A DNA stretch of 64,000 nucleotides, from positions 143,672-207,671 of the forward strand of contig JBGQGB010000001.1 of NCBI GenBank assembly GCA_041497195.1, written 5' to 3'. The DNA is from Candidatus Doudnabacteria bacterium. Lineage in GTDB: Bacteria > Patescibacteriota > Doudnabacteria > UBA920 > 2-01-FULL-46-14. The notes beneath the pieces were generated by a model, which ran no database searches, had not been told where the DNA came from, and saw nothing but the letters and a program-made list of their open reading frames with translations. Position 1 is the stretch's first letter. Each line of letters starts with the position of its first letter. A program made the position numbers and the translations under genes. Shown one piece after another: positions 6,729-47,547 of this stretch.

Positions 6729-6762
6729 CGATGCAAAACTTTCAAAAAGTGAAAAGCCTTTT

Positions 6763-7821: not shown

Positions 7822-7826
7822 AACAT

Positions 7827-9143: not shown

Positions 9144-9146
9144 AGC

Positions 9147-10929: not shown

Positions 10930-10944
10930 AACGGTGGAGTCTAA

Positions 10945-11637: not shown

Positions 11638-11648
11638 AAGTCGAGGGG

Positions 11649-29877: not shown

Positions 29878-29899
29878 ATCTCAATCGACGCTTTGCGTG

Positions 29900-29941
29900 A
29901 AAAACCGGGCTGGTCCACCAGACAGCCCGGTGTATTTTTTT
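29900..29941 (+). terminator. rho-independent terminator
   Basis: CCGGGCTG-gtccaccaga-CAGCCCGG (8-bp perfect stem) followed by TGTATTTTTTT. Confidence 0.65.
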
Positions 29942-30010
29942 GCGGAAAAAAGTTATAATAACATTGTGCGACCCTGCTCCGCCAAGGCTGCGCAGGGCTG
30001 GTGCGAACAT

Positions 30011-30970
30011 ATGAAACCAAAAATCGAATCGGAAAAGAAAACCAAGACAGAGCTCGATGAGCTCAAGACCCAGTTTCTGGAGCATTTGGAAATCGAGAAA
30101 AACCGCTCCCGACTGACTATCCGTAATTACGACTCTTACCTGTCCCGTTTCTTGGAATTTGCCAAAACCAAAGGAGTAAAAAGCCCGGCAGACGTGGACC
30201 TCGATCTGGTCCGGAACTTTCGCCTCTGGCTCAATCGTATTAAAGACAGACAAGGCCGCGAGCTCAAGCTCATCACCCAGAACTATTACATCATCGCTTT
30301 GCGGTCGTTTCTCAAATACCTCGCGAAACGTGACATCCGCTCAATTGCCGCGGAGAAGCTGGAACTGCCGAAAACCCCGTCCCGCCAGGTCGTATTTTTG
30401 GAAATGGATGACCTGGAAAAACTCCTCGCTGCCCCACAAAAAGAAAAAAATGACACAATCCGCTTGAGAGATCAGGCGATCCTGGAACTCCTGTTCTCCA
30501 CGGGTTTGCGGGTCGCGGAACTCTCCAATCTCAAACGCGACCAAGTCAATCTCAAAAAAGACGAATTCCAAGTCAGGGGCAAGGGTGACAAAATCCGCCT
30601 CGTCTTTCTGTCTGAACGGGCCAAAGCGGCTTTGCAAAAATACCTGGCCACCAGACATGACAATTCCCCGGCTCTGTTTGTCCGGCACAACCACGAACTG
30701 TCCCTTCAAGACGACGCTCCTTTGACCGCCCGTTCTATCCAGCGCCTCATCAAAAAATACGCCAAACTCGCCGGCGTTTCCCATGCCATCACCCCCCATA
30801 CCCTGCGGCACACCATGGCCACGGACCTGCTGGCTTCTGGCGCGGACTTGCGCTCGGTCCAGGAAATCTTGGGCCATTCCTCAATAACCACGACGCAAAT
30901 CTACACCCACATTACCAATCAGCGCCTCAAGGAAACCTACAAAAAATACCACGCCCGCAACCGGAAATAA
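30011..30970 (+). CDS. tyrosine site-specific recombinase, XerC/XerD family
   Basis: It has an N-terminal SAM-like core-binding domain (LEHLEIEKNRSRLTIRNYDSYLSRFLEF). The catalytic motifs are RVAEL, HTLRHTMATDLL (HxxR), and LGHSSITTTQIYTHI (tyrosine nucleophile). The start is set at 30011, because the longer ORF from 29897 would span the terminator. Confidence 0.85.
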   Translation: MKPKIESEKKTKTELDELKTQFLEHLEIEKNRSRLTIRNYDSYLSRFLEFAKTKGVKSPADVDLDLVRNFRLWLNRIKDRQGRELKLITQNYYIIALRSFLKYLAKRDIRSIAAEKLELPKTPSRQVVFLEMDDLEKLLAAPQKEKNDTIRLRDQAILELLFSTGLRVAELSNLKRDQVNLKKDEFQVRGKGDKIRLVFLSERAKAALQKYLATRHDNSPALFVRHNHELSLQDDAPLTARSIQRLIKKYAKLAGVSHAITPHTLRHTMATDLLASGADLRSVQEILGHSSITTTQIYTHITNQRLKETYKKYHARNRK

Positions 30971-31191: not shown

Positions 31192-33846
31192 ATGATTCCT
31201 CTCGATAAATTCACCCAAAAAGCTCAGGAGGCCATCGCGGCTTCCCAGACGATTGCGTCCGAGCACGAGCATCAGCAAGTCGACACCATCCACCTTCTCT
31301 ACGCCCTCATCCAGCAAGAAGGTGGCGTCGTGGGGTCGCTTTTGGAAAAAATGAAAATTGATTCGCGGCTCCTGGAAATGCAGATCGAAAAAATCCTGCA
31401 GGCGCTGCCGCAGACATCCGTTTTTCCCTCAGGCTTGGGGCAAATTTACGTCACCCGTAATCTCAATGAAGTGCTCTCACAATCAATGAAAGAAGCGGTA
31501 AAGCTGAAGGACGAGTACGTTTCCACTGAGCATTTGTTTCTCGCGATCCTGGAACGGGGCGGACAGACCAAGCGCCTCCTCGAACAATTCGGGCTCGGTA
31601 CGGTTGACGTGCTGGAGAGCCTCAAGGATATCCGCGGCTCCGAAAGGGTCACCAACCCTGAGCCGGAACAAACATATCAAGCTCTGGAGAAATATACTCT
31701 CAACCTCACTGATCTGGCGCGCAAAAACAAACTTGACCCAGTGATCGGCAGGGACCAGGAAATCCGACGCGTCATGCAAGTCCTCTCCCGCCGCACCAAG
31801 AACAACCCCGTGCTCATAGGCGAACCAGGCGTGGGCAAAACCGCGATCGCTGAAGGACTGGCCCAGCGGATAGTGGCGGGCGACGTGCCGGAGAGTCTCA
31901 AAAATAAAGTCCTGCTGGCCCTGGATTTGGGTTCGCTATTGGCTGGCGCAAAATTTAGAGGCGAATTTGAGCAGCGCATGAAAAGCGTTTTGCGGGAAAT
32001 CGAGCGATCGAGCGGCAAAATCATTTTATTTGTCGACGAACTTCATACCGTGGTCGGCGCAGGTGCGGCCGAAGGGGGCCTGGATGCGTCCAACATGCTC
32101 AAACCAATGCTGGCGCGAGGCCAACTGCATGCCATCGGGGCCACGACCCTGAAAGAGTATCAAAAATATATTGAAAAAGACGCGGCTCTCGAGCGGCGCT
32201 TCCAGCCGGTCATGGTCACCGAGCCGACAATCGAAGACACTATCGCGATTTTGCGTGGGATCAAAGAAAAATACGAGGTCCATCACGGCGTCAAAATCAC
32301 GGATGAGGCCATAGTGTCCGCGGCTGAACTATCCGCCCGCTATATCACTGACCGATTTTTACCCGACAAAGCCATTGACCTCATCGATGAAGCGGGTTCC
32401 AATTTGCGTCTGGAGATTGACAGTATGCCTGAGGATCTTGATCTTTTGAACCGGCGCATCCGCAAACTGGAAATTGAAAAACAAGCGCTGAAACAGGACG
32501 ACTCCGAGCGAGCTTCGGAAAACCTTCCCAAAATTGAAAAAGAACTGGCCGAGTCCCAGGAACAAGCTCGCACGCTGCGCCTGCATTGGGAAGCGGAAAA
32601 AGACATCATTACCAAAATCCGGGAGAACAAAAGCCGCATTGATGAGCTGAAGATGCAGGCCGAATCCGCGGAACGGGAAGGAGACCTCAACAAAGTTGCG
32701 GAAATCCGCTACGGCGAATTGCCGCGCCTGACCAAAGAAATTGCCGAAAAAGAACAGCGCCTGATCAAAATCCAGAGCAAGCACAAAATCCTGCGCGAAA
32801 AAGTCACCGAGGAAGACATCGCTCAGGTCGTGGCGCGCTGGACCGGCGTACCGGTGTTTAAAATGCTCGAGTCGGAATCACAAAAATTGAGCCACATGGA
32901 AACAGAACTCAAGAAACGCATCGTCGGCCAGGACGAAGCCATCACGGCCATCAGCAACGCCATCCGCCGCTCCCGCGCGGGGATTGCCGAAGAGCGCCGT
33001 CCAATCGGGTCTTTCATTTTCCTGGGCCCGACAGGCGTCGGTAAAACGGAAACAGCCAAAGCTTTGGCCGAGTTTCTGTTCAACGACGAAAAGGCACTGG
33101 TGCAGATGGACATGTCCGAATACAGCGAGCGCCATTCGATTGCCAAATTCATCGGCTCCCCGCCCGGCTATGTCGGCTACGAAGAGGGTGGCCAACTGAC
33201 GGAAATCATCAGGCGGCGCCCCTACAGCGTCGTGCTGTTTGACGAGATTGAAAAAGCGCATCCGGAAATATTCAATATTCTCTTGCAAATCCTCGACGAA
33301 GGTCAGCTCACGGACTCAAAAGGACGAACAGTAAATTTCAAAAACGCGATCATCATCATGACTTCGAACTTGGGCTCCGAGATGATCCGCAGCCAAGCCA
33401 TCGGTTTTGAGGCCGAACAAAAAAATCAAAAAACCGAAGTATCCGAAAACGAAATGCGGGACCACGTGCTAGAGATTTTGAACAAGCACTTCCGGCCGGA
33501 GTTCCTCAACCGCGTCGATGAAATTATTATTTTCCACCCTTTGGCCAAAAGACAGCTGGAAAAAATCGTAGAACTGCAGCTGGAGCTAATTCAAAAGCGA
33601 GTGGCAGAACGAGGAGTGGTACTCAAATTCAAACCCGCCGCCAAAAAACTTCTCGCTGACAAAGGGTTTGATCCCGTATACGGCGCCCGGCCCCTCAAAC
33701 GCGCTCTGCAAAGAGAAATCCTGGACAAGCTAGCACTGCTGATGATCAAAGGCGAAATTGAAAAAGGCCAGAGTCTGGAAATCGATACGAAAAAAGATGA
33801 AATAGTTCTGCATCCTGTCCACGAGGCAGAACCGGCGAAAAAGTAA
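31192..33846 (+). CDS. clpB: ATP-dependent chaperone ClpB (canonical)
   Basis: 884 aa with Clp_N repeats. D1 reads [18 protein letters not shown] and [10 protein letters not shown] long coiled-coil middle domain is present. D2 reads [26 protein letters not shown] and GARPLKR. Confidence 0.95.
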
Positions 33847-34347: not shown

Positions 34348-34653
34348 TCAATCCGTTTTTTTCATGAAGCTTCGCAACATCTCATACTCGCGTGCCACAG
34401 CTGCCTCAATCTCTTGTGCTAGTCCCGGCACGCCTGCGGCTATTTCGGCCACAAACTCTTCCAGGCCCGGATCGTCAGCATCAAATTTTTCCTGCAGCTC
34501 TGAAAGTTTCTCTTCCGGTACCCGGCGCAACAGCACTTCCAAAATGACACTGCTGAACTGCCCCTCGAGGCGCTCCACCAGGGCTGGCTCCGGATTGGCA
34601 ATGCCCAATTCGGCCATTAATTTTTGCGTCATCTTCTCTGTATCTGCTGACAT
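34348..34653 (-). CDS. hypothetical small acidic alpha-helical protein, last gene of the uncharacterised four-gene cluster
   Basis: 101-aa ORF. It has no TM segment, no signal peptide and no recognisable motif. Confidence 0.4.
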   Translation of the reverse strand: MSADTEKMTQKLMAELGIANPEPALVERLEGQFSSVILEVLLRRVPEEKLSELQEKFDADDPGLEEFVAEIAAGVPGLAQEIEAAVAREYEMLRSFMKKTD

Positions 34654-34665
34654 AAACTGTCTTTC

Positions 34666-36354
34666 CTACTTATGTTCTGATAAATATTTCTCAACAAGCT
34701 CATGCATCTCCATAGGCTTGGCATTGAACTGTATCGCTAACGTCCCTTCTGGTACTATTTCCCCAGGCTCGATAAACCACAACTCCTTGTCTCCTAATTG
34801 TTTCTTTATTTCCTCAGACAAATCTCCTAACGATTCTTCAAAAGACTGTAGGCCTTGAAACAGTTTATGGCCATGCAAAGTGCTCTTTACTTCTATGCCC
34901 TTCTTCTCAAACTCATTGACCAGATGTCTAGCTTTCAAATCGATTTCTCTGGTTTCTGCAGCCTCCAGCAGTCCGTTCTCGAGATATTTGACCAGGTCTT
35001 TTTCAGATTGGCCTCGGTCGACAACAATCGTTCCGTCTTCCCTGACTCCATTCTCCGCACCCAATCTAAACGAATGCCCTTGCAACTGATATTGATCAGG
35101 AGGTAACTTTGCCAAAGCGCTTTTTAACTTACTTAATGACTCATAGTCACTGTCCGGATCAGAATCCGAAGCAGGATTAAGCTCAATAACGATAAGATTC
35201 TCTTCCCGAAGTTGCCCTTCCAATTCATCAACCTGGTCCTTGGTCTTGGGTTCAGCTTTGAGCTCTTCTTTAGCGATTGTTTCTTCGGTTTTCTTTTCTT
35301 GTAAAACTGTCTTCAGCCTGTCTCTGGCAGAACTATACCAGCTGGAAATTGATTTGCCATATTTACGCTCGAGAACCGCGCCTGTCCCCACACCTACCCC
35401 CAAAATTCCGTAGATAATGGATCGCGTCGCGGCTTCAGACTTTGCATTCACACTAATCTCATGAACGGCTCCTTCGAGGGCTTTTCTCACCCCTTCCTTT
35501 ACCACGGTCGCAGCTGGTGCAGGTACGTGATCCAAATTCTTGACTGCGTGTAAAGCCTCCTCATGGACCGTTTCGGCGAAATTGTTTTCCGGATTGATGC
35601 TATGGCTATAATCGAGCATTTTTTGCCAAGTTTTTTCCACAATCTTACCAACCCATTTCTCCTTGAGGTTGGCGCTCTGTCCGGAGCCCAAAAGCTTCGC
35701 TTTTTCCAGAGCGTCTTGAATGGCCGCTCCCTTGACTTGATAGATGTCACCCGGCTGAATGTGATCCTCCAGATGGCGACGCAAAAAATCTTCCGCATAC
35801 ACCAGTTGTTCCCGAGTCCAATGCACCCCCTGGTCTTGCAAGAGTTGATGCTGCTGTGCCAAATAATCGTGGATGAAATCCCGCGCCACATTGGTCAATC
35901 CCTCGCCAGCCTGGGCGTGGATTTTGAAAACTTGCCCGGGTATCTTCCCCAAGCCTTGCTTGAGCACTTTTTCCATGGCCCGCTTTTTGGCCTCGACCAA
36001 TTGTTCTTGAGTCATTTGCGCAACCTTCTCTGCTGTTTTTCCATCCCCACCCGCAGCATGATCCCACCCGAAATAACTATTAATATGCTCCCCAGCCCAT
36101 TCGCCAAGCGCGCCCGCTCCCGCGCCGATCGTGGCTCCGATGATAGCTCCTCTGGCGACTTTCCAGCCGACTTTTTTTCGCCTGCTACTGAGCATGGATT
36201 TATAAAGTTTCTCCCTCTCCCCAGTCAAATCCGTGACTCCTGCTTGAACTCTTTCTCTGACTCCCAAAATCTCGTTCAATTGCCTGGCAGGTTGTTCAAT
36301 GGCGACTGAAACGCCCGAAACATAAAGTTTGGTCTCAATGTCGCGCAGTTTCAT
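34666..36354 (-). CDS. hypothetical protein with two glycine-zipper hydrophobic segments
   Basis: 562 aa. It carries GAIIGATIGAGAGALGEWAG and IIYGILGVGVGTGAVL segments and an Asp/Ser-rich acidic stretch (NPASDSDPDSDYESL). It overlaps the upstream gene by 4 nt. Confidence 0.45.
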   Translation of the reverse strand: MKLRDIETKLYVSGVSVAIEQPARQLNEILGVRERVQAGVTDLTGEREKLYKSMLSSRRKKVGWKVARGAIIGATIGAGAGALGEWAGEHINSYFGWDHAAGGDGKTAEKVAQMTQEQLVEAKKRAMEKVLKQGLGKIPGQVFKIHAQAGEGLTNVARDFIHDYLAQQHQLLQDQGVHWTREQLVYAEDFLRRHLEDHIQPGDIYQVKGAAIQDALEKAKLLGSGQSANLKEKWVGKIVEKTWQKMLDYSHSINPENNFAETVHEEALHAVKNLDHVPAPAATVVKEGVRKALEGAVHEISVNAKSEAATRSIIYGILGVGVGTGAVLERKYGKSISSWYSSARDRLKTVLQEKKTEETIAKEELKAEPKTKDQVDELEGQLREENLIVIELNPASDSDPDSDYESLSKLKSALAKLPPDQYQLQGHSFRLGAENGVREDGTIVVDRGQSEKDLVKYLENGLLEAAETREIDLKARHLVNEFEKKGIEVKSTLHGHKLFQGLQSFEESLGDLSEEIKKQLGDKELWFIEPGEIVPEGTLAIQFNAKPMEMHELVEKYLSEHK

Positions 36355-37643
36355 GACCAGAGCAAGGGCTTCTTCTTTTTGGCCTCTTTAATCGCCAGGG
36401 TCAGGGCCTGGTGAGCCTTCGCCAGCTCCAGCCCATCCTTGCCCTCTAGTTCCTTGGCCCAGCTGGTGGCAGAGTATTGTTCCTTGACTCCCTGCCGCCA
36501 TTCCCGCAGCCCCCGAAACGTCCCGCCAATGACAGCGCCCATTTGCCAACCACTCAGACTCAAAACGCTTTTGATGGACTGGCGCATGGCCATGCGCGCA
36601 GCGGAAGTGCCCAAAAACGATACAGCAAAATCCAAAGGCACGCCCCAGAGTTTTTGTCCCTGAAGCTTTTGCAGGGCAAATTCTCCTGCTTTGTCTAGGA
36701 AATTTCTATTGTTCACGATCGCGTCGAACTGAGCCCGTTTCTCGGAAGACAATTCCGCCAGCTGTTCTTCCAGAGTCTTTTTGACCTCTTCTGCCACGGC
36801 TGCCTTCACATCATCCGGAGTCGCTCCATGAGATTCTACCGGTTGTTCGTCTTTAGCCCCGTAGCGCTCACTATCTCGAAGTTTGGCCTCATGACGCGCT
36901 TTCGCTACCATCAATCGCTCTGGCGTCGGAAGCTCCAAATGATTTTCTGATACAGGATTCGGTTCTCCCTCCAAAAAATACTTCCGCAAATCTCCTTCTT
37001 TATCTATTCTGGTAATCAAGACTGGCTCACGCAATTCTAAATCCCCATTATCATCCACCAGCATGACAAAATCACCCACCTTATAGCCTCCGACGTCAAC
37101 TCTCTCAACCTCCGCCATATCTCCGACCGGCTCTGCGGCCGCTGGTGTTGGCTGCACTGGTTCCGGTTCTTTTGACTCTTGGGATTTTTGATACCTAGAT
37201 CGTAAAGCGACTTGAAGTTGCTCCCGCGTTGGACTGGATAATTCTAAATTTTCTTCGGGAATGGGCCCGCCAAAACCCTCAAGTAAATACTCAAAAGTAG
37301 CGCCATTTGTTTGCACATCCAAAATCACCACCGGGCGTCCCGTAACAAAATCGCCACCTCTTTTACCAACCACATTTACCATTTGCCCAGCTTGAAATAG
37401 AGGTTTTTTCTCGCCTCTAGCTTCCAAAGCATCACTAACAAGAGTTTCCCTGGGCGGTAGTGCCTCCTGCTCTGTCGCCTGATCAGGTGCGGCTTGCGTT
37501 TCCGCCAGCGCTGCTGAATCAGCTGCACCGGATTGGGGCACGCCAGAATCAGCGGGCTTCGCAGTCGCTTCAAATTCGGCCCGGGGCTTACGCGGGCGGA
37601 AATTGTTAAATATGTTGGGGTTGGCTTTGCCAAAATCGACCAT
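36351..37643 (-). CDS. hypothetical protein with two tandem roughly 60-aa beta-rich repeats
   Basis: 430 aa. The repeats GQMVNVVGKRGGDFVTGRPVVILDVQTNGATFEYLLEGFGGPIPEENLELSSPTREQL and GDFVMLVDDNGDLELREPVLITRIDKEGDLRKYFLEGEPNPVSENHLELPTPERL share an xLEG..P..EnLEL..PtRE.L signature. The N-terminus is low-complexity. The start overlaps the upstream stop. Confidence 0.45.
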   Translation of the reverse strand: MVDFGKANPNIFNNFRPRKPRAEFEATAKPADSGVPQSGAADSAALAETQAAPDQATEQEALPPRETLVSDALEARGEKKPLFQAGQMVNVVGKRGGDFVTGRPVVILDVQTNGATFEYLLEGFGGPIPEENLELSSPTREQLQVALRSRYQKSQESKEPEPVQPTPAAAEPVGDMAEVERVDVGGYKVGDFVMLVDDNGDLELREPVLITRIDKEGDLRKYFLEGEPNPVSENHLELPTPERLMVAKARHEAKLRDSERYGAKDEQPVESHGATPDDVKAAVAEEVKKTLEEQLAELSSEKRAQFDAIVNNRNFLDKAGEFALQKLQGQKLWGVPLDFAVSFLGTSAARMAMRQSIKSVLSLSGWQMGAVIGGTFRGLREWRQGVKEQYSATSWAKELEGKDGLELAKAHQALTLAIKEAKKKKPLLWS

Positions 37644-40540
37644 CAGCTTTTTCCTTTCTGTGCGGGCAGTTTGCGCCTCAGCCCCAAAGTATAATATGCT
37701 TGCCCCAGAACCTCTTTCAATTTTTCTTCAGGAAATTTCTCCAGTAACATTCGTTTCAAATGGGGAACAACGTTGTTGCTGATAATTTCTCTGCGAACCA
37801 CTTCATTGCCCTTCTTGATTTTTTTATCGCCCTCATTTTCCAAGCTCTGGATGTATCCGTCAACATTTCCGGAAATAAGCATATAGAAACGATCCCCGAC
37901 TCCGCGGCGCAGCATGTCTTCATCTAACTCATACGCCCGCAAGAGCCACTCTTTGAAACTAGCCAGATAGTCTTTGGCGATTTGCTCCAAAATCTTCCTC
38001 TCTCCGGAAAATTCCTGATTGATCTCCATTGTAAATTTGCCTTCGGCTTCGAGCTCCAGGACTTCCTCAATTTTTCCCTTCGGCCGGAAACCGCGCTCAT
38101 CGGTAATAGCAGTGAGGATGTCGCGAAGCTTGATGCCGTCCTTGCGGGCTGGGTCATCATTGATAAAAATCGCCCCGCGCACAAACACGCCTTGGTGGAA
38201 TTTTTTCTCCAGAGCGCGCAATTCCGGAATTTTACTCAGATCCACGTCCCGTTTGAGTGTATTGATCATAAAAAAACCTTCAGCCGTATAAATAAGATAC
38301 CCGGACAACCGGCCTTCGCCATAGGCTTGCACCGCCTCGTGATTGACAGACTGTTTTTCCCGGCCAATCAAATCGACAAAATAAGTTCCCAAGTTCTTCG
38401 TGTAGATTGCCTTACCCTCGGCCACCAATTCTGCCAGAGGTCTGGTCAAGATTTCTTTCGCTTTACCAACTCTATATTTGATTTTTTCCTGTGGGGAATA
38501 GGTTTGACCTTGCTCCGGTTTGTCCAAACCATACGCAGTCACCTCCTGAGGAGTCAAATTACGATAGAGCGCGCGCTCGTAGGCTTCGTATGATTTGCCT
38601 CCCTGGCCATTGATTCGAAAGTACTCATATAGTTGTTCAGCGCTCATTTGTCGGCCCAACCCTCGCACAGTCTGGTAGCTGTTTTCAAAATCCGCCACCC
38701 GGCCCGCTTTGGTGATTGGAAAAGATGAATTGTCCTCATCAACCGTATATTGAATCATGTGTTCGATCCCTCGTTTTTTCTCTGCTCCGAGTTCAGTGAA
38801 AAACTCGGCATGCTTCAAAAGCTCGTAAACAATTTTGGCACTGGAAGTTTCAAATTCCCTCGCCCGCGCGTGATTGTCAATGATGACCGAGAGTTTTCCT
38901 TCCAAGGTTTTTTTTGCCACAATTCCCGATTCGCCGCCGATGTCAATGGAAAACGTCCGCTCTCTTTGATCTCGATGACGGACCCCTGCCGCGGTCCGGG
39001 CGCCTCGAATTCCAGCCTTGCCCAACAGCCACATCGAAACTTTGGCATCACTGTCAGTCCGGCCACTGGCCTTTCGCTCAAACACAAAATCCCGCCAGGT
39101 TTCGCGTACCACCTCTTTGAATCTTGTCTCTGATTCTTCGAGCGAACCAGCATTAAGCTTCCGTAGGTCATCAACCAATTCTATGGTAATCTCACCGGCA
39201 ATTCGCCCGAGCGGATCATATCCAGCCGCGATATCAGCCTCAAATTGCGACAAAGCTTTTCGCAAATTATCTCTGTTAATCGCTTCCGGGACGTACGCCG
39301 GGGGATTTTGCTCGTTCAATAGCGCTCTCGCGTCAGACAAGGTCATGCCCAACAACGACTTCCGCTCCAAAAATTTATAAGCCGGAGAACGTCTGAGTGC
39401 CTCGGCCGCTTGCTCTGTTTTTGCCGGCTGCTTTGGATTTCTGTCTGGCTTTTGAGCAGATGCTTGTACGGGCTCCTTTTCCTTAGTTTTGCGCCTTAGG
39501 ATTTTCGGAATTACTGATAATGCTTCCTTGCCTTCATTCGGACCATTTCCTTGGCCAGCCACAACTTTAAATTCAGGTTTGTTTTTCGGTTCACGCTGCT
39601 GTCCTAAAGCTAGTTTTTCTTGCGGGGCTGAAACTGGAGGAGGGATTTTGCTCTCAGGTTCTTCCGGACGAGCGACAACGACTGGGGCTTTCGCACTGAC
39701 TGGAACTGAGGAAACCCCAACAGGATTCTGTTCCGAGCTCTTCTGAGCCTTGTCACCCAAAGCTTTCCGTAAAGCCGTTTCCATTGTCGTAGGGGCCCTT
39801 GTTACTGCGCTTCCACCGTTTGGTTTAGCTAAGGGCGGGTCCTTTGACTGAGTAGAAACGATTGAAGTTGCCTCACTTACATCAGGCGCCAAACCTGCAG
39901 CAATTAGTTCCTCTGAGTTTGATTGTCCATTCCCTTTTCTAGGCTTTGGGGTGATAGCAGCAATTCTCTCAGTCTCAGCCTGGACGAGGGCATTAGCCTG
40001 CTGCTCTTGGGGTTTTTCGTCAGTTTTTTCTTTTTCAGGCCCTGCAAAAGTTGCGCCGGCAGATTCAGGATGCACAGGCTCTTGAGGTTTTTTTACTTGT
40101 TCCGTCTCTGCCTTCGGCTGAAGGGCTTCTTTTGGAAAAGAAGGCGCGATATCCTCAAGCTTCGGCAAGTTCAAATCCGGAGCCAGACCCAGGTTTTTAT
40201 ATACTTCTTCCAGGCGAGCGGTAAAGTCTTTTGAAAACTCCTCAATTTGATTCCATACATCCATTCCTTCATTGTCAACGGTCAGTTCTGTATTTTTTGC
40301 CTTATCGTCCTGAACAATAGCCTGCTCGACAGTCCCAAAGAGGTGCTGGGCTTCTTGGAAAACCTGTGCGGCCTTCTGCTTCGCTATATCCAGGCTTTCT
40401 TTAGTTTTTGCCAGCCGGACAATATGAATGAGGCCGTAGAGTCTTTTTTCAAGATTGTTTTTAAAAACTTCACGTGCCTTCGGGACGCCCTCAACTAGCT
40501 TTTCGAAATTTTGTTTCGGTTCTTCTCGAACTTTTGGCAT
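37643..40540 (-). CDS. large hypothetical protein (965 aa); low-complexity Lys/Glu/Pro-rich N-terminal half and a globular C-terminal half
   Basis: It has no signal peptide and no canonical Walker A. The central segment RTFSIDIGGESGIVAKKTLEGKLSVIIDNH resembles the phosphate-1 motif of ASKHA/actin-fold ATPases and Ppx/GppA (hhhDhGsxs); this is weak evidence. It is the first gene after a strong promoter. Confidence 0.45.
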   Translation of the reverse strand: MPKVREEPKQNFEKLVEGVPKAREVFKNNLEKRLYGLIHIVRLAKTKESLDIAKQKAAQVFQEAQHLFGTVEQAIVQDDKAKNTELTVDNEGMDVWNQIEEFSKDFTARLEEVYKNLGLAPDLNLPKLEDIAPSFPKEALQPKAETEQVKKPQEPVHPESAGATFAGPEKEKTDEKPQEQQANALVQAETERIAAITPKPRKGNGQSNSEELIAAGLAPDVSEATSIVSTQSKDPPLAKPNGGSAVTRAPTTMETALRKALGDKAQKSSEQNPVGVSSVPVSAKAPVVVARPEEPESKIPPPVSAPQEKLALGQQREPKNKPEFKVVAGQGNGPNEGKEALSVIPKILRRKTKEKEPVQASAQKPDRNPKQPAKTEQAAEALRRSPAYKFLERKSLLGMTLSDARALLNEQNPPAYVPEAINRDNLRKALSQFEADIAAGYDPLGRIAGEITIELVDDLRKLNAGSLEESETRFKEVVRETWRDFVFERKASGRTDSDAKVSMWLLGKAGIRGARTAAGVRHRDQRERTFSIDIGGESGIVAKKTLEGKLSVIIDNHARAREFETSSAKIVYELLKHAEFFTELGAEKKRGIEHMIQYTVDEDNSSFPITKAGRVADFENSYQTVRGLGRQMSAEQLYEYFRINGQGGKSYEAYERALYRNLTPQEVTAYGLDKPEQGQTYSPQEKIKYRVGKAKEILTRPLAELVAEGKAIYTKNLGTYFVDLIGREKQSVNHEAVQAYGEGRLSGYLIYTAEGFFMINTLKRDVDLSKIPELRALEKKFHQGVFVRGAIFINDDPARKDGIKLRDILTAITDERGFRPKGKIEEVLELEAEGKFTMEINQEFSGERKILEQIAKDYLASFKEWLLRAYELDEDMLRRGVGDRFYMLISGNVDGYIQSLENEGDKKIKKGNEVVRREIISNNVVPHLKRMLLEKFPEEKLKEVLGQAYYTLGLRRKLPAQKGKS

Positions 40541-40562: not shown

Positions 40563-40591
40563 ATTATATCATTTTTTAGCCGATTTGTAAA
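40563..40591 (-). promoter_or_regulatory. strong sigma70-like promoter driving the four-gene hypothetical cluster
   Basis: The minus strand reads TTTACA-17 nt-TATAAT, about 20 nt upstream of the ATG at 40540. It is preceded by an imperfect hairpin plus U-run (40600-40640) that could terminate the ABC-transporter operon. Confidence 0.5.
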
Positions 40592-40644
40592 GCAAAAATC
40601 CGAGCGTTTGCCCCGATTTTATAGGCCTGCCAGTGTAAAAAGGT

Positions 40645-41901
40645 TCACTCGTAGCGCATGGCCTCAACAGGATCGAGTTTCGAAGCGCTGCGGGCTGGTA
40701 ATACGCCAAATAAAATACCAATGGTCGCTGACACACCAAATCCCAATCCAACAGCATACAGTGGTACGCTAAAAGCCCAAACAAGACCTAATACGCCCGC
40801 TATGATTGATACCAACCAGCCTAAAAACCCCCCCACCAAAATGCCAAGAATTCCACCCAAGACAGTCACTAAAATTGACTCAATAAGAAATTCGCCCAAG
40901 ATGTCAGAATTTTTCGCACCCAAGGCTTTTTTCAGTCCGATCTCTGCAGTCCGCTCTGTCACGGCTACGTACATAATATTCATAATCCCAACTCCCCCAA
41001 CAATGAGTGATATGGCAGCAATAGCGACCAACAAATAAGTGATTCCGTTGAAAATCACATTTATCGTACCGAGTACGTCTGCTTGCGTCGCCACAGTAAA
41101 ATCATCTCTGGCCAGATCATGGATACCGTGATTTTCTCGCAAAACGACACGGATGTCTTCGGCGGTAGCGTCCGCCTGATTGATATCTTGCAGTGCCACT
41201 ACAGCACGAGCCATATAGTCGATACCAAGCATTTTTTTCTGAACTGTCTGCAGAGGAATGAAGATGGCATCGTCACTGCCAGGTCCCAGCCCACCGCGCT
41301 CATTGTAAACTCCGATGATCTGAAAGTTCAAGTTGCCGATTCGAATGTACTTGCCCACTGCAGAGTCAGTGCCAAAAAAATTATTGGCAGTGGCCGAACC
41401 CAGTATCGCGACCTGAGCTTCCCCATTGTCCTCGCCCTCGGTATAAAAACGTCCTTCGCGCAAAGTTCCGTGATCTATGTCAAAGCGCTCCGCTCCCGCG
41501 CCAATGTACATCTCGCTCTTTTTCGTATCGAGATAACTAACCGTCCCTTGCCCAACAGCGATACCATAAGCGCCAGAAACGTTGGGCAATCGCTTGATAT
41601 CATCGAGGTCTCGCTTTTTAAAAGACGTGACAGCTACGGTAGTGTTAAGGTTGTCGAGACCGGGTCCTGCCGCAGCTGACGCCGCCCGGTTTTTGGTGGT
41701 AGGAGGTACCTTCGTTGCGATGACTAGTGTATTGGTACCGAGTGAGGCGATTTGCGAATTGACTAATCCGCGAAACCCCGCGCCGGCAGCAAGGACCAAA
41801 ATAACGGTAGAAATACCGATTACAATTCCAAGCGTTGTCAGCATAGTCCGCCCGGGATTGGCTCTTAGTGACTTTATAGATTGGCGAAACGCAGTAAACA
41901 T
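40645..41901 (-). CDS. ABC transporter permease, MacB/FtsX family (paralog B)
   Basis: 418 aa with one N-terminal TM helix, a roughly 230-aa extracytoplasmic MacB_PCD-like domain and a C-terminal 3-TM FtsX domain (LGAKNSDILGEFLIESILVTVLGGILGI). Confidence 0.8.
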   Translation of the reverse strand: MFTAFRQSIKSLRANPGRTMLTTLGIVIGISTVILVLAAGAGFRGLVNSQIASLGTNTLVIATKVPPTTKNRAASAAAGPGLDNLNTTVAVTSFKKRDLDDIKRLPNVSGAYGIAVGQGTVSYLDTKKSEMYIGAGAERFDIDHGTLREGRFYTEGEDNGEAQVAILGSATANNFFGTDSAVGKYIRIGNLNFQIIGVYNERGGLGPGSDDAIFIPLQTVQKKMLGIDYMARAVVALQDINQADATAEDIRVVLRENHGIHDLARDDFTVATQADVLGTINVIFNGITYLLVAIAAISLIVGGVGIMNIMYVAVTERTAEIGLKKALGAKNSDILGEFLIESILVTVLGGILGILVGGFLGWLVSIIAGVLGLVWAFSVPLYAVGLGFGVSATIGILFGVLPARSASKLDPVEAMRYE

Positions 41902-41911
41902 AGTGTAAAAA

Positions 41912-43183
41912 TTATTCGTAGCGGAGGGCGTCGATGGGACTCAACTTTGCCGCTTTCAAGGCCGGGTACAGGCCAAATATGACACCGGTCAAAATCGAAA
42001 CGCCAACTGAGAGCACTATTGATAGTGGTGAAATAACAAAAGCCCAATCATAGCCGAGTTTGCGCATCAATAAGGCAGCCAAAAATGATACGACCACACC
42101 GCCGACTATACCGAGCAATCCCCCAAGCAAAGTCAGGGTACCGGCCTCAAACAAAAATTGATTGCGAATCGCGGCATTACTCGCTCCGACAGCTTTACGT
42201 AATCCGATCTCACGGGTCCGCTCCGCAACCGTGACCAGCATAATATTCAAAATTCCAACGCCAGCCACAATGAGGGCGATGCCCGCCATGGACACCAAAA
42301 ACAATTTTAGCGCGTTGGTGACCGTGCTCAAAATATTAACGGCATCTGCTTGATTGCGAACCACAAAATCGAGGTCAACCTTTTCTGCGATGTGGTGGCG
42401 CTCTTTCAGCACTTGCGTGATATCTGCCGCGGTTGACGAAACATTATCGGCTGCATCCACTTTGATGCCAATACCTTGCAAATACCGAATGCCCAAAAGT
42501 TCTTTTTGTCCTATGTCGAGGGGCATAAATACCATATCGTCCTGGTCCTGAAAAAAGGAACTGCCTCTTGACGCAATCACCCCTTCCACCCGTAAGGGTA
42601 TCCCACCCGATTTTGCTTGCGAGGCTGTCTTCACTTTCACCACCTGGCCTACTGGGTCCACACCAGTACCGCTAAATAATTCGTCAGCGACTGTACTGCC
42701 GAGTACGATGACGCCAGCCCCACCCTGGTCCTCTTGTTCTGAAAAAAATTGCCCGTCCTGCATCGTAAAATTGATGCCCTTAGGATAATTGAAGTCTGTG
42801 CCGGTGAAATTGGTGTCAATACTTTGGGTTCCCCATGATACGGTCACAATACCCTCTACAGAGGGATTGACTGCCAGGGCGTGAGGAACGCGTCCAGTAT
42901 CGCGCAAAGCAGCAGCATCTTCATTGGTGAGCGTGGTTATGACCACCCCAAACACGGTGGATGGCGGCCCATTCTCATTCCCAACCCATGGCTGTATGTA
43001 GAGCAAATTCGAACCAAATTTTGTGACTTGAGCTAAAATCAAACTCTGAGCGCCTGCCCCAAGGGCGATGATGATGATCACACCAGAAACCCCGATAACT
43101 ATGCCCAGAATCGTCAAAAACGATCGCCCTTTCCGAGCGCGTAAAGTGCCAAATACCAATTTGAAACTGCCGAAAAAATTCAC
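41912..43183 (-). CDS. ABC transporter permease, MacB/FtsX family (paralog A)
   Basis: 423 aa with the same architecture, reading VGASNAAIRNQFLFEAGTLTLLGGLLGI. The two permeases are about 40% identical to each other, which suggests a heterodimeric LolC/LolE-like pair. Confidence 0.8.
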   Translation of the reverse strand: MNFFGSFKLVFGTLRARKGRSFLTILGIVIGVSGVIIIIALGAGAQSLILAQVTKFGSNLLYIQPWVGNENGPPSTVFGVVITTLTNEDAAALRDTGRVPHALAVNPSVEGIVTVSWGTQSIDTNFTGTDFNYPKGINFTMQDGQFFSEQEDQGGAGVIVLGSTVADELFSGTGVDPVGQVVKVKTASQAKSGGIPLRVEGVIASRGSSFFQDQDDMVFMPLDIGQKELLGIRYLQGIGIKVDAADNVSSTAADITQVLKERHHIAEKVDLDFVVRNQADAVNILSTVTNALKLFLVSMAGIALIVAGVGILNIMLVTVAERTREIGLRKAVGASNAAIRNQFLFEAGTLTLLGGLLGIVGGVVVSFLAALLMRKLGYDWAFVISPLSIVLSVGVSILTGVIFGLYPALKAAKLSPIDALRYE

Positions 43184-43202
43184 AAAATTGCCAAAACCAA
43201 TT

Positions 43203-43919
43203 TTACTTCAAAAGGTCCTTGTCAACAGCCGCGATGGTTCGATGCGTGACCCGGGCGTCCTCCACAATTTTTCCATCCTTGATTTTGATAATCCTCTTTG
43301 CGTGATTTGCTGTGTCAGTTTCATGCGTCACCAGAATGATCGTATGACCCTGCTCATTCAGGTTCTGCAAAATATACATAATGCTATTGCCAGATTTTGA
43401 GTCGAGGTTACCTGTCGGCTCATCGGCAAAAATGACCGCCGGATCACACACCAACGCTCGAGCAATCGCTACCCGCTGTTTTTCTCCTCCAGAAATTTGA
43501 TTCGTGTAATAGTCCAACCTGTGCGACAGCCCAACTGACTCCAAGGCCTTTTTCGCAAGCGAATCGTGATTCTTTTTACTGCTATAAATGAGGGGCAGTT
43601 TGACGTTGTCTAGGACCGTGGTCCGCGGAAGCAAATTAAAAGACTGAAAAACAAAGCCAACTCTGTCATTCCTGAGTGTCGCCAAATATTCGTCAGAAAA
43701 AACACTCGTGTCTTTGCCCTCAAATTCATAAAGACCGCTCGTGGGACGGTCCAGAAAACTGAGAATATGCATCAGCGTGGATTTGCCGCTTCCCGACGGG
43801 CCCATAATTGCCACGAACTCCCCGGCCTCGACCGACAAAGTGATACCTTGCAAAACTTTGGTGACCACGTCCTCGTTAATGTAGTCCTTTATTAGATTTT
43901 CGGCCCGGATTATGCTCAT
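43203..43919 (-). CDS. ABC transporter ATP-binding protein (MacB/LolD-type NBD)
   Basis: It carries GPSGSGKST (Walker A), [15 protein letters not shown] (signature), [12 protein letters not shown] (Walker B) and an H-loop. Confidence 0.9.
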
Positions 43920-43926
43920 GATTTTC

Positions 43927-45492
43927 TTAGCTCTTCAAAAAAGTCACGATTTCCTGGCCCTCTCGAAGCCCAGAAGTAACCTCTACCAATCCCCCATCGG
44001 CATTGAGCCCCGTCTGAATTTGAACTTGGTGGTAGATTTTTTTCTGGGGATCATCAATCACACGCACAAAATGTTCGCTATCCCGATTGACCACCGCACG
44101 CTGGGGAACGGCCAAAACGCCCCGTTTTTCTGCAGCCAAAATTGTCATATTTGCGGTCATGCCGGGTTTGATCTGTGAGGCATCCTCAAGACTGGCTTTG
44201 ATTTTGTAATTCACAACACCAGAGATCACTGTCGATGCGGGATCCACAGTCTGGACTGCGGCTTTGAAATGTTCATCCGGGCCTAAGGCATCAAAAGTGA
44301 CATCCACACTTTGTCCTGATTTGATGATGGCGATATTTGCTTCACTCACATTTGCCTCAAGATACAAATTGTCGACATCCTGCAAAATTACCGCCTCTTT
44401 GAGCGCGGTTGCCAACTCTCCAACCTTGATATCTACACTTGTAATAGTGCCAGATGCTGGGGCTCGAATAACAGTATTCTCAAAATTCGATTGTGCAGTT
44501 TGAACCTGGCCTTGGGCAGAAAGTACCTGGGCTTGCGCGACGGCTACATCCGCCGGTCGGGCCTGAGCTTTTTTGAGATTGAGCTGCGCGACCGCTTGAT
44601 CGAGACTCGCTTGCGCTGTGGCGATTTGTGCCTGCGCTGTGGTAATCGCGACGTTTTGAGTTTGTAACGCGGCTAAATAAGCATTGTTGTTGGTCGTGTA
44701 AGCTGAGGAGTTCGTATTCGGAATAGAAACTGCCCAGGTGTCGTTGTTGACTTGAATATAACTAGTAGGAAATTGAATCGACAAACCCCGGCTGCCCAAA
44801 CTCACGGGAGATATCGCGCTAATATAGAACGGGCCGCCCACCTCCAGACCGTCGAAACTGAATTGATTTCCGGTTTGTCGAATCGAATACGCCCCCTGCT
44901 GCGTACCAACATAGGCTCCGGAAATGGTCGGATTGCTCGTATTCAGGTTGCTGGTCGCGGGAATCGCGGCCAAGCCCGAATTCAACAGAGTCCGGAGCGC
45001 ATTGTTGACCAAGACCTGCTGCTGCGCTACCGTGTCATTCAAATTTTTCTTGGCATTATCCAAAGCGACTTGTGCCGCGTCCACTGCGGATTGGGCCACG
45101 GAAACTTCCTCGGTACTCGCCCCAGACAGAACTTTCTGATAGTTAGCCTGGGCTTGGGCCAGGGACCCTTGTGCAGTAGTCAGACCAGCGACGGCATCTT
45201 TTTGATCAAGAGTAGCCAGGACATCTCCTACGTTGACTTTGTCACCAACCGCGACATTGACTCTGGTGACGATGCCGCTGGTTCTAAAACTCAAATCCAA
45301 ATCTGTGCCACTCGTGACTTGACCGGTGGCCAGAACTGTCTGTTTCAAATCCTGTCTTTTCACGATATCTGTCAAAGTGCCACTTGTGGAATTGCCGGGT
45401 TTGATGATCCGGTAGACGATACCTCCGACGACGACCACGATGACGATCGTCCAAATGATGACTTTTTTGCGGAAAAAAGATTTGATTGTCAT
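43927..45492 (-). CDS. HlyD/MacA-family membrane-fusion (periplasmic adaptor) protein with an insertion at the coiled-coil hairpin tip
   Basis: 521 aa. It has an N-terminal TM anchor, a lipoyl/beta-barrel signature (TGQVTSGTDLDLSFRTSGIVTRVNVAVGDKVNVGDVLATLD ... VIRAPASGTITSVDIKVGE) and long Ala/Gln-rich coiled coils. An extra roughly 105-aa Ser/Thr/Asn-rich segment (residues about 170-275) interrupts them. Confidence 0.75.
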   Translation of the reverse strand: MTIKSFFRKKVIIWTIVIVVVVGGIVYRIIKPGNSTSGTLTDIVKRQDLKQTVLATGQVTSGTDLDLSFRTSGIVTRVNVAVGDKVNVGDVLATLDQKDAVAGLTTAQGSLAQAQANYQKVLSGASTEEVSVAQSAVDAAQVALDNAKKNLNDTVAQQQVLVNNALRTLLNSGLAAIPATSNLNTSNPTISGAYVGTQQGAYSIRQTGNQFSFDGLEVGGPFYISAISPVSLGSRGLSIQFPTSYIQVNNDTWAVSIPNTNSSAYTTNNNAYLAALQTQNVAITTAQAQIATAQASLDQAVAQLNLKKAQARPADVAVAQAQVLSAQGQVQTAQSNFENTVIRAPASGTITSVDIKVGELATALKEAVILQDVDNLYLEANVSEANIAIIKSGQSVDVTFDALGPDEHFKAAVQTVDPASTVISGVVNYKIKASLEDASQIKPGMTANMTILAAEKRGVLAVPQRAVVNRDSEHFVRVIDDPQKKIYHQVQIQTGLNADGGLVEVTSGLREGQEIVTFLKS

Positions 45493-45496
45493 GGAA

Positions 45497-45799
45497 TTAC
45501 TTCTTAGTGACTGAGCTTAAAATCTCTGACGCGTATTTCTTGAATTTTCTTTTGAGCGCAGCATTACCGAAATTTTCCACATTTTTCATGATCAATTCGA
45601 CGAGATCGCTGAGGGCCTCAGCCTTGATCAGTCCCAGAGCACGGCCCATTTTCCCCACCACGACCAAGGAATCGCCAGGGATAATTTTGAGATCTTTGCG
45701 TGCTTGAACCGGAATCACCACCTGGCCTTTGGCGCCAACCACAGTAGTGCCGTACATTTTGTCCTGTTTAAATAGTTTCTCATGAAATAACTGTTTCAT
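45497..45799 (-). CDS. AbrB/MazE/SpoVT-type (swapped-hairpin) DNA-binding protein, first gene of the transporter operon
   Basis: 100 aa. The N-terminal motif TTVVGAKGQVVIPVQARKDLKIIPGDSLVVV is typical of SpoVT_AbrB domains. Confidence 0.6.
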   Translation of the reverse strand: MKQLFHEKLFKQDKMYGTTVVGAKGQVVIPVQARKDLKIIPGDSLVVVGKMGRALGLIKAEALSDLVELIMKNVENFGNAALKRKFKKYASEILSSVTKK

Positions 45800-45834
45800 A
45801 TATTAAAATCCTTTAAGTATAACAATTCCTACTA

Positions 45835-45863
45835 ATCATACTGCTGTTTTGAAACACTGTCAA
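45835..45863 (-). promoter_or_regulatory. sigma70-like promoter for the abrB-like/adaptor/ABC operon
   Basis: The minus strand reads TTGACA-17 nt-TATGAT, about 35 nt upstream of the ATG at 45799. Confidence 0.5.
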
Positions 45864-45865
45864 TG

Positions 45866-45894
45866 GGAAATAAAAACGGGCCGTTGACCCGTTC
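45866..45894 (-). terminator. rho-independent terminator of the membrane-protein gene 45899..46378
   Basis: The minus strand reads AACGGG-ucaacgg-CCCGUU followed by UUUUAUUU. Confidence 0.5.
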
Positions 45895-45898
45895 TCCT

Positions 45899-46378
45899 CT
45901 AAAAATCAGGTGGTTGGTTTTGTTCCGCTTCCTCTCGCTTGTGTTTTTGCTTGGCGTAGAGAACCCACAACATGATCATGGTCACCACAACAACCGCGCT
46001 GAAATTGATGGTATTGAACACCTGCAAGGGGTCTGCTGAGAGATAGCGGATCGCCCCTGACCACAGGGCGAATTCATCAATGACCAAGCCCAAACCGATC
46101 CCATAGATGAAAGCGCCGAGACGGCGCGGAATGTTCTTCCCCAAGACGATTTGGAGAAAACCCATAATCAGAATAATAAAATTCCCGTACACAAAATGGT
46201 GGAGCCGGAAGCCGTCAATACTGATGAAAAGGCTGCGCGGGAGCTCGTCAGTTTTGATCACGAAAAAAGCGATCAAGCGGGCAATCAAGACGACTGTCAA
46301 AAAAGTGAACAAAGTAATCGCCAGGGGTTCCTGGAGACTGAAAAGTCTGATATTTTTTTTTGCGACTGTCTCAGACAC
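45899..46378 (-). CDS. hypothetical membrane protein (4 TM)
   Basis: 159 aa and hydrophobic. It is transcribed divergently from the multi-HTH gene. No motif was recognised. Confidence 0.45.
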   Translation of the reverse strand: MSETVAKKNIRLFSLQEPLAITLFTFLTVVLIARLIAFFVIKTDELPRSLFISIDGFRLHHFVYGNFIILIMGFLQIVLGKNIPRRLGAFIYGIGLGLVIDEFALWSGAIRYLSADPLQVFNTINFSAVVVVTMIMLWVLYAKQKHKREEAEQNQPPDF

Positions 46379-46527
46379 AGCGATTATCTCTTGTGTTTGG
46401 AAAATACCTCTGGCAGAGCAACCTTAGCACAAATTACGCTTTTGAAAAAGCCCTGGGCCTGGCTTATTTACAAAACCGAAGGAGTAATGATAGACTGACC
46501 AGTCAGATCAAAGGAGGAAAATTCACT

Positions 46528-47547
46528 ATGCGCTTAGGGACTGAACTGAGAAATATCAGACAGGGGCAGGGATGGAGTCTGAGAGCTGCGGCAGACAAAA
46601 TCCGCAGGGTCGGCTGGACAGGAATCACCCCTCAATATCTCGGCCATATCGAGCGCGGCGACACGTTGCGTCCGGCTTTGGAAAAATTGGCCTGGCTCGC
46701 TCGGGCCTATGGCTTACGGCGTCAACTTCTGGAAAGTTGGCTACCACCAGAACCGCCGCTTGCGATAAAACCGAGGACAGAACTTGGCCAAGCACTGCTG
46801 GCCGAACTCGCTACAAGAAATCTTTCGGTTGCCAACTTCGCCAAGCTGCTGGACGAAACCACCAAGTATCTCCGAGAGTTGCTCCGCGGCGACTTCAAAA
46901 GCCTATCTGCCCACCGCGCGCCAAAATTTGTCAAAGTTCTGAAATGGCCTCCACAGAAAGTCTTCCGCTTTGCCCAGCGGATCCAAAACGAAGCGTGCGA
47001 CACAGCCATCGGCCAGTGGGCCTTGAAGCGAAGAATTGAGCTGGGCAAAACCCAAAAACAAATCGGGCTAGAGGCAGGGGGAGTGCACCAGCGCGTCATC
47101 AGCGCTCTGGAACGAGGCAGAATCAATCTCCGCAGGCTCGCTTGGGCCAAACATGCTCTATGGGCTGCAGCCTATGCGGTGACAACTCAGGAGTTTAGAC
47201 AGCGGATTCTAGGACTGTCACATGTAGCAGTAGCCGAACGGCAGCCACCCAAACCCACGCGCGCTCTTCCCCGGCAGTTACCACCGCTAGCAAAGCCGAA
47301 ACCTAACGTCGAGAAAAAGGTCAAGTTGCCAGAGACTCCTCTCAAAAAACCTCAGCCAACACTGGAAACCTCACCCAAACCTCTGCCGAGCCCGCAGCAA
47401 GCATCTCCGGCAGTTCTGCCCAAATACGTTATACCCAGAGCAGCAGTTCGGACCGGACTCCCGCTCTCGCGCGAAACTCTGCACGAATGGTTGGAAAAAA
47501 GAGTAGCGCTGGAAACAACTCTCCACAGACAAGCCCGCGGATCGTAA
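46528..47547 (+). CDS. multi-HTH (XRE/Cro-C1-type) DNA-binding protein with Pro-rich C-terminal tail
   Basis: The start was chosen at the ATG preceded by AGGAGG (46528); the longer ORF from 46360 lacks an RBS. Three XRE-like helix-turn-helix units are present (LRNIRQGQGWSLRAAADKI...YLGHIERGD, LSVANFAKLLDETTKYL, KRRIELGKTQKQIGLEAGGVHQRVISALERGR). The tail reads PPKPTRALPRQLPPLAKPKPN. GC is noticeably higher than in neighbouring genes. Confidence 0.6.
   Translation: MRLGTELRNIRQGQGWSLRAAADKIRRVGWTGITPQYLGHIERGDTLRPALEKLAWLARAYGLRRQLLESWLPPEPPLAIKPRTELGQALLAELATRNLSVANFAKLLDETTKYLRELLRGDFKSLSAHRAPKFVKVLKWPPQKVFRFAQRIQNEACDTAIGQWALKRRIELGKTQKQIGLEAGGVHQRVISALERGRINLRRLAWAKHALWAAAYAVTTQEFRQRILGLSHVAVAERQPPKPTRALPRQLPPLAKPKPNVEKKVKLPETPLKKPQPTLETSPKPLPSPQQASPAVLPKYVIPRAAVRTGLPLSRETLHEWLEKRVALETTLHRQARGS

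Follow-up and report, generated by a model that had tools for sequence, protein, structure and literature searches.

We analysed a 64,000-nucleotide stretch of a Candidatus Doudnabacteria genome (GCA_041497195.1, contig JBGQGB010000001.1, hereafter the window), in which five co-oriented open reading frames (ORFs) on the minus strand form an operon for a MacAB-like pump. According to the ORF list the operon runs from 45799 to 40645, with intergenic gaps of 4, 7, 19 and 10 nt. Its first gene (45497..45799) encodes an AbrB/SpoVT-type DNA-binding protein of 100 aa with a swapped-hairpin domain at residues 18-53. It is followed by the gene for a MacA/YknX-type periplasmic adaptor of the membrane-fusion protein (MFP) type, which is membrane-anchored and comprises five domains (43927..45492, 521 aa), and by that for an ATP-binding cassette (ABC) ATPase, which forms a polypeptide of its own (43203..43919, 238 aa) and is of the Spr0694/LolD type also seen in the nucleotide-binding domain (NBD) of MacB. 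The last two genes encode FtsX/MacB-type permeases: permease A (PermA; 41912..43183, 423 aa), with four transmembrane (TM) helices and an extracytoplasmic MacB_PCD domain, and permease B (PermB; 40645..41901, 418 aa). An earlier note, made from the sequence alone, had read the operon in this order, and both the ORFs and their domain matches bear it out. The promoter which that note had assigned to the operon, a sigma-70-type TTGACA-17-TATGAT, was found on the minus strand at 45835..45863 with 11 of 12 consensus matches. In many orthologous loci the AbrB gene is preceded by the same -35/-10 architecture.

Together with its relatives, the pump represents a variant of the monoderm MacAB-like type that is found across the Patescibacteria (candidate phyla radiation, CPR) and is defined by a five-domain adaptor, a fixed pair of permeases and, in some lineages, an AbrB-type module. 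The efflux field has yet to explain why bacteria that lack an outer membrane possess adaptors with long hairpins (PMC5985334; PMC4446572). Adaptor reviews of 2015, 2018, 2021 and 2026 describe four-domain adaptors, with plain hairpins in monoderms, and mention no tip domain. Our literature searches found neither this CPR system nor a domain at the hairpin tip described.

The adaptor and its hairpin-tip domain

Using profile searches, the adaptor was assigned to the RND_mfp family TIGR01730 (E=3.5e-43; 147.8 bits versus a cut-off of 94.9), and the Pfam families HlyD_D23, HlyD_3 and Biotin_lipoyl_2 matched above their cut-offs. Precomputed Pfam matches included the YknX-type barrel and C-terminal domains (PF25990 and PF25989). 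We then compared an AlphaFold model of the adaptor (60 homologues as input, mean predicted local distance difference test score (pLDDT) of 86.6) with solved structures, and the best matches were the MacA chains 9qgy_G, 5nik_D and 4dk0 (Foldseek E ~1e-19 to 1e-20). Profiles, model topology and Foldseek agree on the membrane-proximal, beta-barrel and lipoyl domains and the alpha-helical hairpin of a MacA/YknX-type MFP. At the N terminus, a predicted helix of hydrophobic sequence at residues 9-30 (45403..45468, like all adaptor parts on the minus strand) forms a TM anchor and lacks a lipobox cysteine.

The hairpin is built from helix 1 at residues 98-170 (44983..45201; ~73 aa, kinked at 124-125) and helix 2 at residues 263-338 (44479..44706; kinked at 311-312), both as modelled by AlphaFold. 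At ~1.5 Å per residue, helices of ~73 residues would make a hairpin about 11 nm long, and including the other domains we infer an adaptor height of roughly 20 nm. The hairpin of MacA is clearly shorter. Between the two helices the model places a compact, all-beta domain of 92 aa (residues 171-262; 44707..44982) with a pLDDT above 90. Solved MacA aligns to residues 39-121 and 271-516 of the adaptor and leaves this middle part unmatched, and none of the MacA structures matched by Foldseek is long enough for an extra domain. That is, the succession of helix, beta domain and helix in the model and the gap in the MacA alignment put the insertion at the tip of the alpha-hairpin, where the earlier note had located it. 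Its range for the insert (nt 44667..44985, residues 170-276) needed correction: the insert is real, but the range ran about 14 residues into helix 2.

The tip domain is rich in Ser, Thr, Asn and Gly and holds only 5 charged residues among its 92. Across the adaptor family it is marked by invariant Gly, Tyr, Trp, Pro and Asn positions and by the signature GTYTG..G.Y, GLE, PLG..GL.IQF and W..(I/V)PN. Searching 1.84 billion cluster representatives with a profile of the domain returned 573 proteins, nearly all of them between ~470 and 590 aa in length and carrying the domain near residues 150-280, which identifies them as adaptors of the same family. One high-scoring protein of 2389 aa (P0123) was judged to be spurious, a tandem-repeat protein that shares only a short GT.xG.Y motif, repeated 22 times. 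In the Pfam profile search no family covered the domain, and a weak match to DUF4097 (E=0.005) was disregarded. A loose likeness of fold was detected to the D2 domains of FlgK and FlgL (14-16% identity, Foldseek E ~0.05, no detectable sequence relationship), flagellar junction proteins that belong to machinery unrelated to the pump. This likeness more probably reflects a shared way of putting a beta domain into a hairpin than homology.

Adaptors dock onto TolC-type channels through an R-x3-L-x6-S (RLS) motif (PMC4446572). The motif is absent from the window adaptor and from 56 of the 60 homologues, occurring only incidentally in the other 4; the place of an RLS tip for docking to an outer-membrane factor is held here by the 92-aa beta domain.

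Spread across Patescibacteria and probable AbrB-type regulation

An identical adaptor sequence was found in GCA_041492065.1 and in a 364-kb JGI metagenome contig (Ga0534155_0000004). All relatives at 40-65% identity belong to the Patescibacteria, with members in Doudnabacteria, Paceibacterota, Staskawicz-, Nomura-, Zambryski-, Kerfeld- and Veblenbacteria and in bins labelled as Saccharibacteria. To describe their surroundings we used 80 related loci from species-representative genomes. About 54 of these hold the full order adaptor-ATPase-PermA-PermB, and PermA is complete in 58. This synteny spans Doudnabacteria, Paceibacterota, Staskawicz-, Nomura-, Zambryski-, Kerfeld- and Veblenbacteria, among others, and across CPR classes the ATPases share ~75-80% and the permeases ~60-70% identity. 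Judged by these sequences, the pump with its tip-domain adaptor is a family trait across Patescibacteria and not peculiar to one genome.

Cryogenic transmission electron microscopy (cryo-TEM) of ultra-small CPR-type cells revealed a surface layer and no outer membrane (PMC7906910). The genome studied here is patescibacterial, in keeping with the monoderm-type envelope that had been supposed for its host. Among the window ORFs scanned and the genes called around the operon, no OEP/TolC domain was detected; the earlier statement that the window lacks a TolC-like gene holds for these ORFs.

The adaptor also occurs in other settings. In eight loci (L004 at 4768..12667, L016, L018, L020, L025, L027, L034 and L059) we found adaptor homologues with the tip domain, up to 60% identical, that have no adjacent ABC genes; the neighbours of the adaptor in L004 are two Wzy_C (O-antigen-ligase-like) plus TPR proteins and one subtilase. 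Seven others (L028 at 8543..10677, L033, L036, L037, L064, L067 and L063) show a paralogous arrangement of the adaptor with one divergent FtsX permease and an ATPase. In loci of the L028 type this permease has no recognisable MacB_PCD domain, and the ATPase is only ~42% identical to that of the window. Since some members lack ABC genes and others have a single permease, the adaptor with its tip domain serves more than one context.

The product of the first gene matched TIGR01439 at residues 18-53 (E=1.7e-7; 30.8 bits versus a cut-off of 28.3), which identifies the swapped-hairpin AbrB/MazE/SpoVT domain, while the Pfam model PF04014 (MazE_antitoxin) scored 19.6 bits, under its cut-off of 24.7. 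No close solved relative of the protein was found. Of the 80 loci, 25 have an AbrB-like gene directly 5' of the adaptor gene and co-oriented with it; these 25 are of Doudnabacteria-like, Kerfeld- and Veblenbacteria type and not of Paceibacteria type.

Aligning the upstream regions of the AbrB-bearing loci yielded an 18-bp palindrome, AGTATG-N6-CATACT (consensus AGTATGAAATATCATACT), which is new in this analysis and begins 1-2 bases past a TATGAT-type -10 box. With a loose pattern it was detected in 22 of the 25 loci, every time at the AbrB promoter, and at just 3 other places in 1.04 Mb of locus DNA. The window holds a degenerate copy, AGTAGG-N6-TATACT, at the homologous position 1 nt past its -10 box (45816..45833, minus strand). 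In four loci (L071, L073, L008 and L021) variants alter a single half-site and the other shows no change to compensate, and this non-compensatory variation favours a protein operator over an RNA hairpin, a reading we therefore disfavour. Most likely, to judge from the comparison of loci, the AbrB-like protein represses its own operon through the palindrome abutting the -10 box, and the conserved operator-like site lends plausibility to the AbrB-type regulator named in the earlier note. Several promoters of Kerfeld- and Veblenbacteria type (L072, L075, L082, L073 and L065) carry extra tandem CATACTT half-sites, for example TCATACTTAAGTATGATATTTCATACTTTTCATA, an arrangement that suggests multimeric binding.

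The permease pair and a proposed mechanism

PermA and PermB share 36% identity. Both were matched well above the cut-offs by PF02687 (FtsX) and PF12704 (MacB_PCD), and both show the hallmark of MacB-type permeases, a C-terminal four-TM FtsX module with the MacB periplasmic core between TM1 and TM2. The MacB model NF007826 gave 210.6 and 205.9 bits for the permease part; its equivalog cut-off of 966 bits was not reached, and the fusion of NBD and permease seen in proteobacterial MacB is missing. The best solved relatives of the permeases are MacB (E=1e-50 to 1e-57) and Spr0695 of Streptococcus pneumoniae, whereas the structures of LolE and LolF were matched at E=1e-4 to 1e-7 only. The lolCE model TIGR02212 has a cut-off of 362 bits, of which the permeases reached 43.0 and 44.8 in profile searches; on the exception models of LolC and LolE, with cut-offs of 439-540, they scored 17-28 bits. 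These cut-offs rule out membership of the permeases in the LolC/LolE families. The earlier note had called the system Lol-like: as an analogy of a heteromer, with two different permeases and one ATPase at the level of gene content, the term stands; as a statement of family it does not.

For the ATPase, ABC_tran matched with E=1.1e-33, and a Walker motif, the signature LSGGE and the Walker B sequence FADEPT are visible. Its best solved relative is Spr0694 (5xu1_A, E=7e-66), and its score on LolD nearly equals that on the MacB NBD.

In the related loci the first permease always best matches PermA of the window and the second PermB. A neighbour-joining tree of 112 full-length permeases (58 PermA and 54 PermB) resolved two clean, reciprocally monophyletic clades. 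Each clade is well conserved, and from these sequences each permease is judged to be under purifying selection. Taken together, reciprocal monophyly, 36% identity and fixed gene order indicate that the two are not recent duplicates, as the heterodimer proposed in the earlier note would require. An old duplication of which both copies were kept favours an obligate heteromer. Three plasmid-borne relatives from outside the CPR (in Bacteroides, with TolC, Bacillus and Azospirillum) have one permease each, a sample too small to generalise. Tandem FtsX permeases occur in other phyla.

Several known systems resemble the pump in part. As in Spr0693-Spr0694-Spr0695 of the monoderm S. pneumoniae (PDB 5XU0/5XU1), which works with no outer-membrane partner, the ATPase is separate, the permeases are of MacB type with a large domain outside the cytoplasm, the adaptor is TM-anchored and no outer-membrane partner was seen among the window ORFs scanned; the split of ATPase and permease genes matches that of Spr0694/0695. 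But Spr0695 is a single, homodimeric permease, whereas the window pump has two different ones, and Spr0693 is a four-domain adaptor with a plain hairpin, much shorter than 521 aa (solved fragment of 231-273 residues). The full Spr0693 adaptor is ~400 aa long, and we know of no AbrB-type first gene in this system. MacA and MacB of MacAB-TolC (E. coli, Aggregatibacter) are the top solved relatives, and the N-terminal TM anchor is as in MacA. However, MacB is a homodimer with a fused NBD, and the hairpin tip of MacA docks TolC through RLS, while the window pump combines a separate NBD, two permeases, hairpin helices of ~73 residues and a 92-aa tip domain, with no RLS and no outer membrane. YknWXYZ of Bacillus is likewise a monoderm MacAB-like system with YknX-type adaptor domains, but it has a single permease, an additional four-TM protein (YknW) and an adaptor without a tip domain. 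LolCDE shares one ATPase gene and two diverged FtsX-type permease genes, presumably for an asymmetric pair of transmembrane domains; it differs in being a diderm system that has no adaptor and hands its cargo to LolA, and the window permeases are not orthologues of LolC or LolE.

We propose, with a probability of roughly 0.6, that the locus encodes a MacAB-like exporter (a type VII ABC system working by mechanotransmission) adapted to the CPR envelope, which has no outer membrane, and that it operates as follows. Two copies of the ATPase would power a PermA-PermB heterodimer, by analogy with LolCD2E. ATP-driven movement of the large extracytoplasmic domains, that is, mechanotransmission, would push substrates taken from the outer leaflet or the wall zone into the adaptor tube, through which they would be expelled. 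Adaptors of monoderm MacAB-like pumps make hexameric channels, and YknX, which is hexameric, binds peptidoglycan (PMC5985334). By analogy with MacA, YknX and Spr0693 (PMC5985334), the tube is expected to be a hexamer, and estimated from the helix lengths it would rise roughly 20 nm from the membrane. More speculatively, the six tip domains may sit on its rim as a crown, standing in for the contact with TolC and either touching the wall or surface layer or giving the exit its shape. The earlier note had considered the cell wall or the cargo as possible partners of the tip. Expression would be held down by the AbrB-like protein bound next to the -10 box. That the pump is so strongly conserved from one CPR class to another suggests a housekeeping role in the envelope or in detoxification rather than to a strain-specific cargo; amphipathic peptides, lipids or glycolipids are speculative examples of what might be transported.

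Some points weigh against this proposal. The structure predictions were of monomers, while the heterodimer, the hexamer and the role of the tip crown are putative, and the inspection for outer-membrane factors covered 64 kb of the genome. Nor is the adaptor bound to a single kind of transporter, since some members of its family have no ABC genes beside them and others only one permease. Furthermore, the palindrome copy of the window has 2 mismatches and is not significant alone. Finally, the AbrB gene is missing from most Paceibacteria-type loci, which makes AbrB regulation lineage-specific.

Instead of one heterodimer, the operon might supply two alternative homodimeric pumps, PermA2 and PermB2, which would share ATPase and adaptor and give two substrate specificities. 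MacB, Spr0695, YknZ and LolF all act as homodimers (PMC5985334), both permeases keep all shared family motifs (76 positions are at least 90% conserved in both clades), and CPR have paralogous single-permease systems with the same type of adaptor (L028, L063 and L070). However, no complete canonical locus has lost either permease, and the order of A then B is fixed. In addition, the PermA and PermB clades have fixed but differing residues at 11 positions, several of which lie in TM1 and TM2 (A:L41/B:A39 and A:A291/B:G286 are examples), as expected of complementary interfaces. We therefore regard the homodimers as a rather unlikely arrangement.

The same permease heterodimer could, in principle, act as a Lol-like extractor that pulls lipoproteins or host-derived lipids from the membrane and passes them to the wall or surface layer. 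The heteromeric gene content is that of LolCDE, the ATPase fits LolD nearly as well as it fits the MacB NBD, and CPR, being without fatty-acid synthesis, must handle foreign lipids (PMC7906910). But the permeases fall far below the LolC/LolE models (~43-45 bits versus 362), and their match to MacB reaches E=1e-50 to 1e-57; a membrane-fusion adaptor is foreign to Lol systems, and no LolA/LolB-like gene was seen in the operon, so that we give this reading a low chance.

A machine that signals like FtsEX, in which movement of the extracytoplasmic domain would regulate an extracellular enzyme or wall remodelling via the long coiled coil and nothing would be transported, seems very improbable: type VII ABC systems do include the non-transporting FtsEX, which acts through coiled-coil partners (PMC5985334), and the coiled coil of the adaptor is very long and ends in a globular domain, but the partner here has the complete four-domain build of an MFP, including the lipoyl, beta-barrel and membrane-proximal domains, as does the channel-forming MacA, the permeases have a full MacB_PCD instead of the small extracellular domain of FtsX and score weakly on FtsX models, and the tip domain carries no hydrolase signature.

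Here an entire monoderm, host-dependent radiation kept the adaptor hairpin, lengthened it and swapped its TolC-docking tip for a conserved, dedicated domain, in a pump that runs on two fixed, different MacB-type permeases. The system offers a handle on the role of an adaptor tip without TolC, on whether MacB-type pumps can be obligate heterodimers outside Lol, and on passage across the CPR envelope, which is poorly understood. The conserved pair of promoter and operator is, moreover, a rare defined regulatory element for Patescibacteria genetics. Should the pump merely be a peptide or drug efflux system with a decorative tip, it would be a modest structural variant; its importance rises sharply if the tip crown is a built-in substitute for the outer-membrane factor. 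In its boldest form, which we hold to be doubtful, a docking crown of six domains would link the pump with the surface layer or wall of the CPR cell or, at sites of contact, with the envelope of the host, and so create a TolC-independent trans-envelope conduit. Its obligate PermA-PermB heterodimer would then do an essential, Patescibacteria-specific job, for instance the transfer of host-derived lipids, glycolipids or lipoproteins to the cell surface or away from it. This would amount to a new class of 'tripartite' pump, with a built-in adaptor domain in place of the outer-membrane factor.

Neighbouring genes and the wider window

Upstream of the operon promoter, a terminator-like hairpin was read from the sequence on the minus strand (AACGGG-TCAACGG-CCCGTT followed by a T-run; 45868..45893). 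This putative terminator ends the upstream gene, which encodes a 159-aa membrane protein (ORF 45899..46378), and insulates the operon from it. Divergently placed at 46360..47547 on the plus strand lies the gene for a 395-aa protein with two XRE-type helix-turn-helix domains and a Pro/Lys-rich C-terminal tail. At the other end of the operon, a weak terminator-like stem-loop follows PermB (40600..40616, minus strand), and the next gene has a separate promoter-like site (40563..40591, minus strand).

The cluster served by this site (34348..40540, minus strand) comprises four ORFans of 965, 430, 562 and 101 aa, whose charged, low-complexity products contain Gly-rich hydrophobic segments. Searches of Pfam and PADLOC returned no matches for them, and none of the 80 other loci has a homologue beside the pump. 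The suggestion that substrates of the pump are encoded in this cluster was rejected on the grounds of its own promoter-like site and the absence of synteny with the pump elsewhere. Clustering of the flanks across loci revealed synteny at the level of lineages only (pilin-like, NDH-2-like and topoisomerase genes, among others) and linked no cargo gene to the pump. In the Doudnabacteria-like locus L005 (3546..5507) and 17-18 similar loci, a pilin-like gene with an N-terminal methylation motif and a gene for a 487-aa protein lie just upstream of the AbrB-adaptor operon.

Elsewhere in the window, at a distance of about 4 kb from the four ORFans, there is a gene of the tyrosine recombinase/phage-integrase family (29897..30970, plus strand), which may be XerC/D-like or the marker of a mobile element. 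Two genes encode ClpB-like AAA+ chaperones (3832..6525, minus strand, and 31192..33846, plus strand), the first of which has no Clp_N and AAA_lid_9 matches. A leucyl-tRNA synthetase ORF of 1037 aa (11649..14762, minus strand) matches Abhydrolase_1 and Ser_hydrolase at residues 242-396, as though an alpha/beta-hydrolase-like part had been inserted between its catalytic core and its editing domain. Although Patescibacteria are usually described as fermentative, a gene at 59568..61538 (minus strand) encodes a COX1-type haem-copper oxidase subunit I (E=7e-141).

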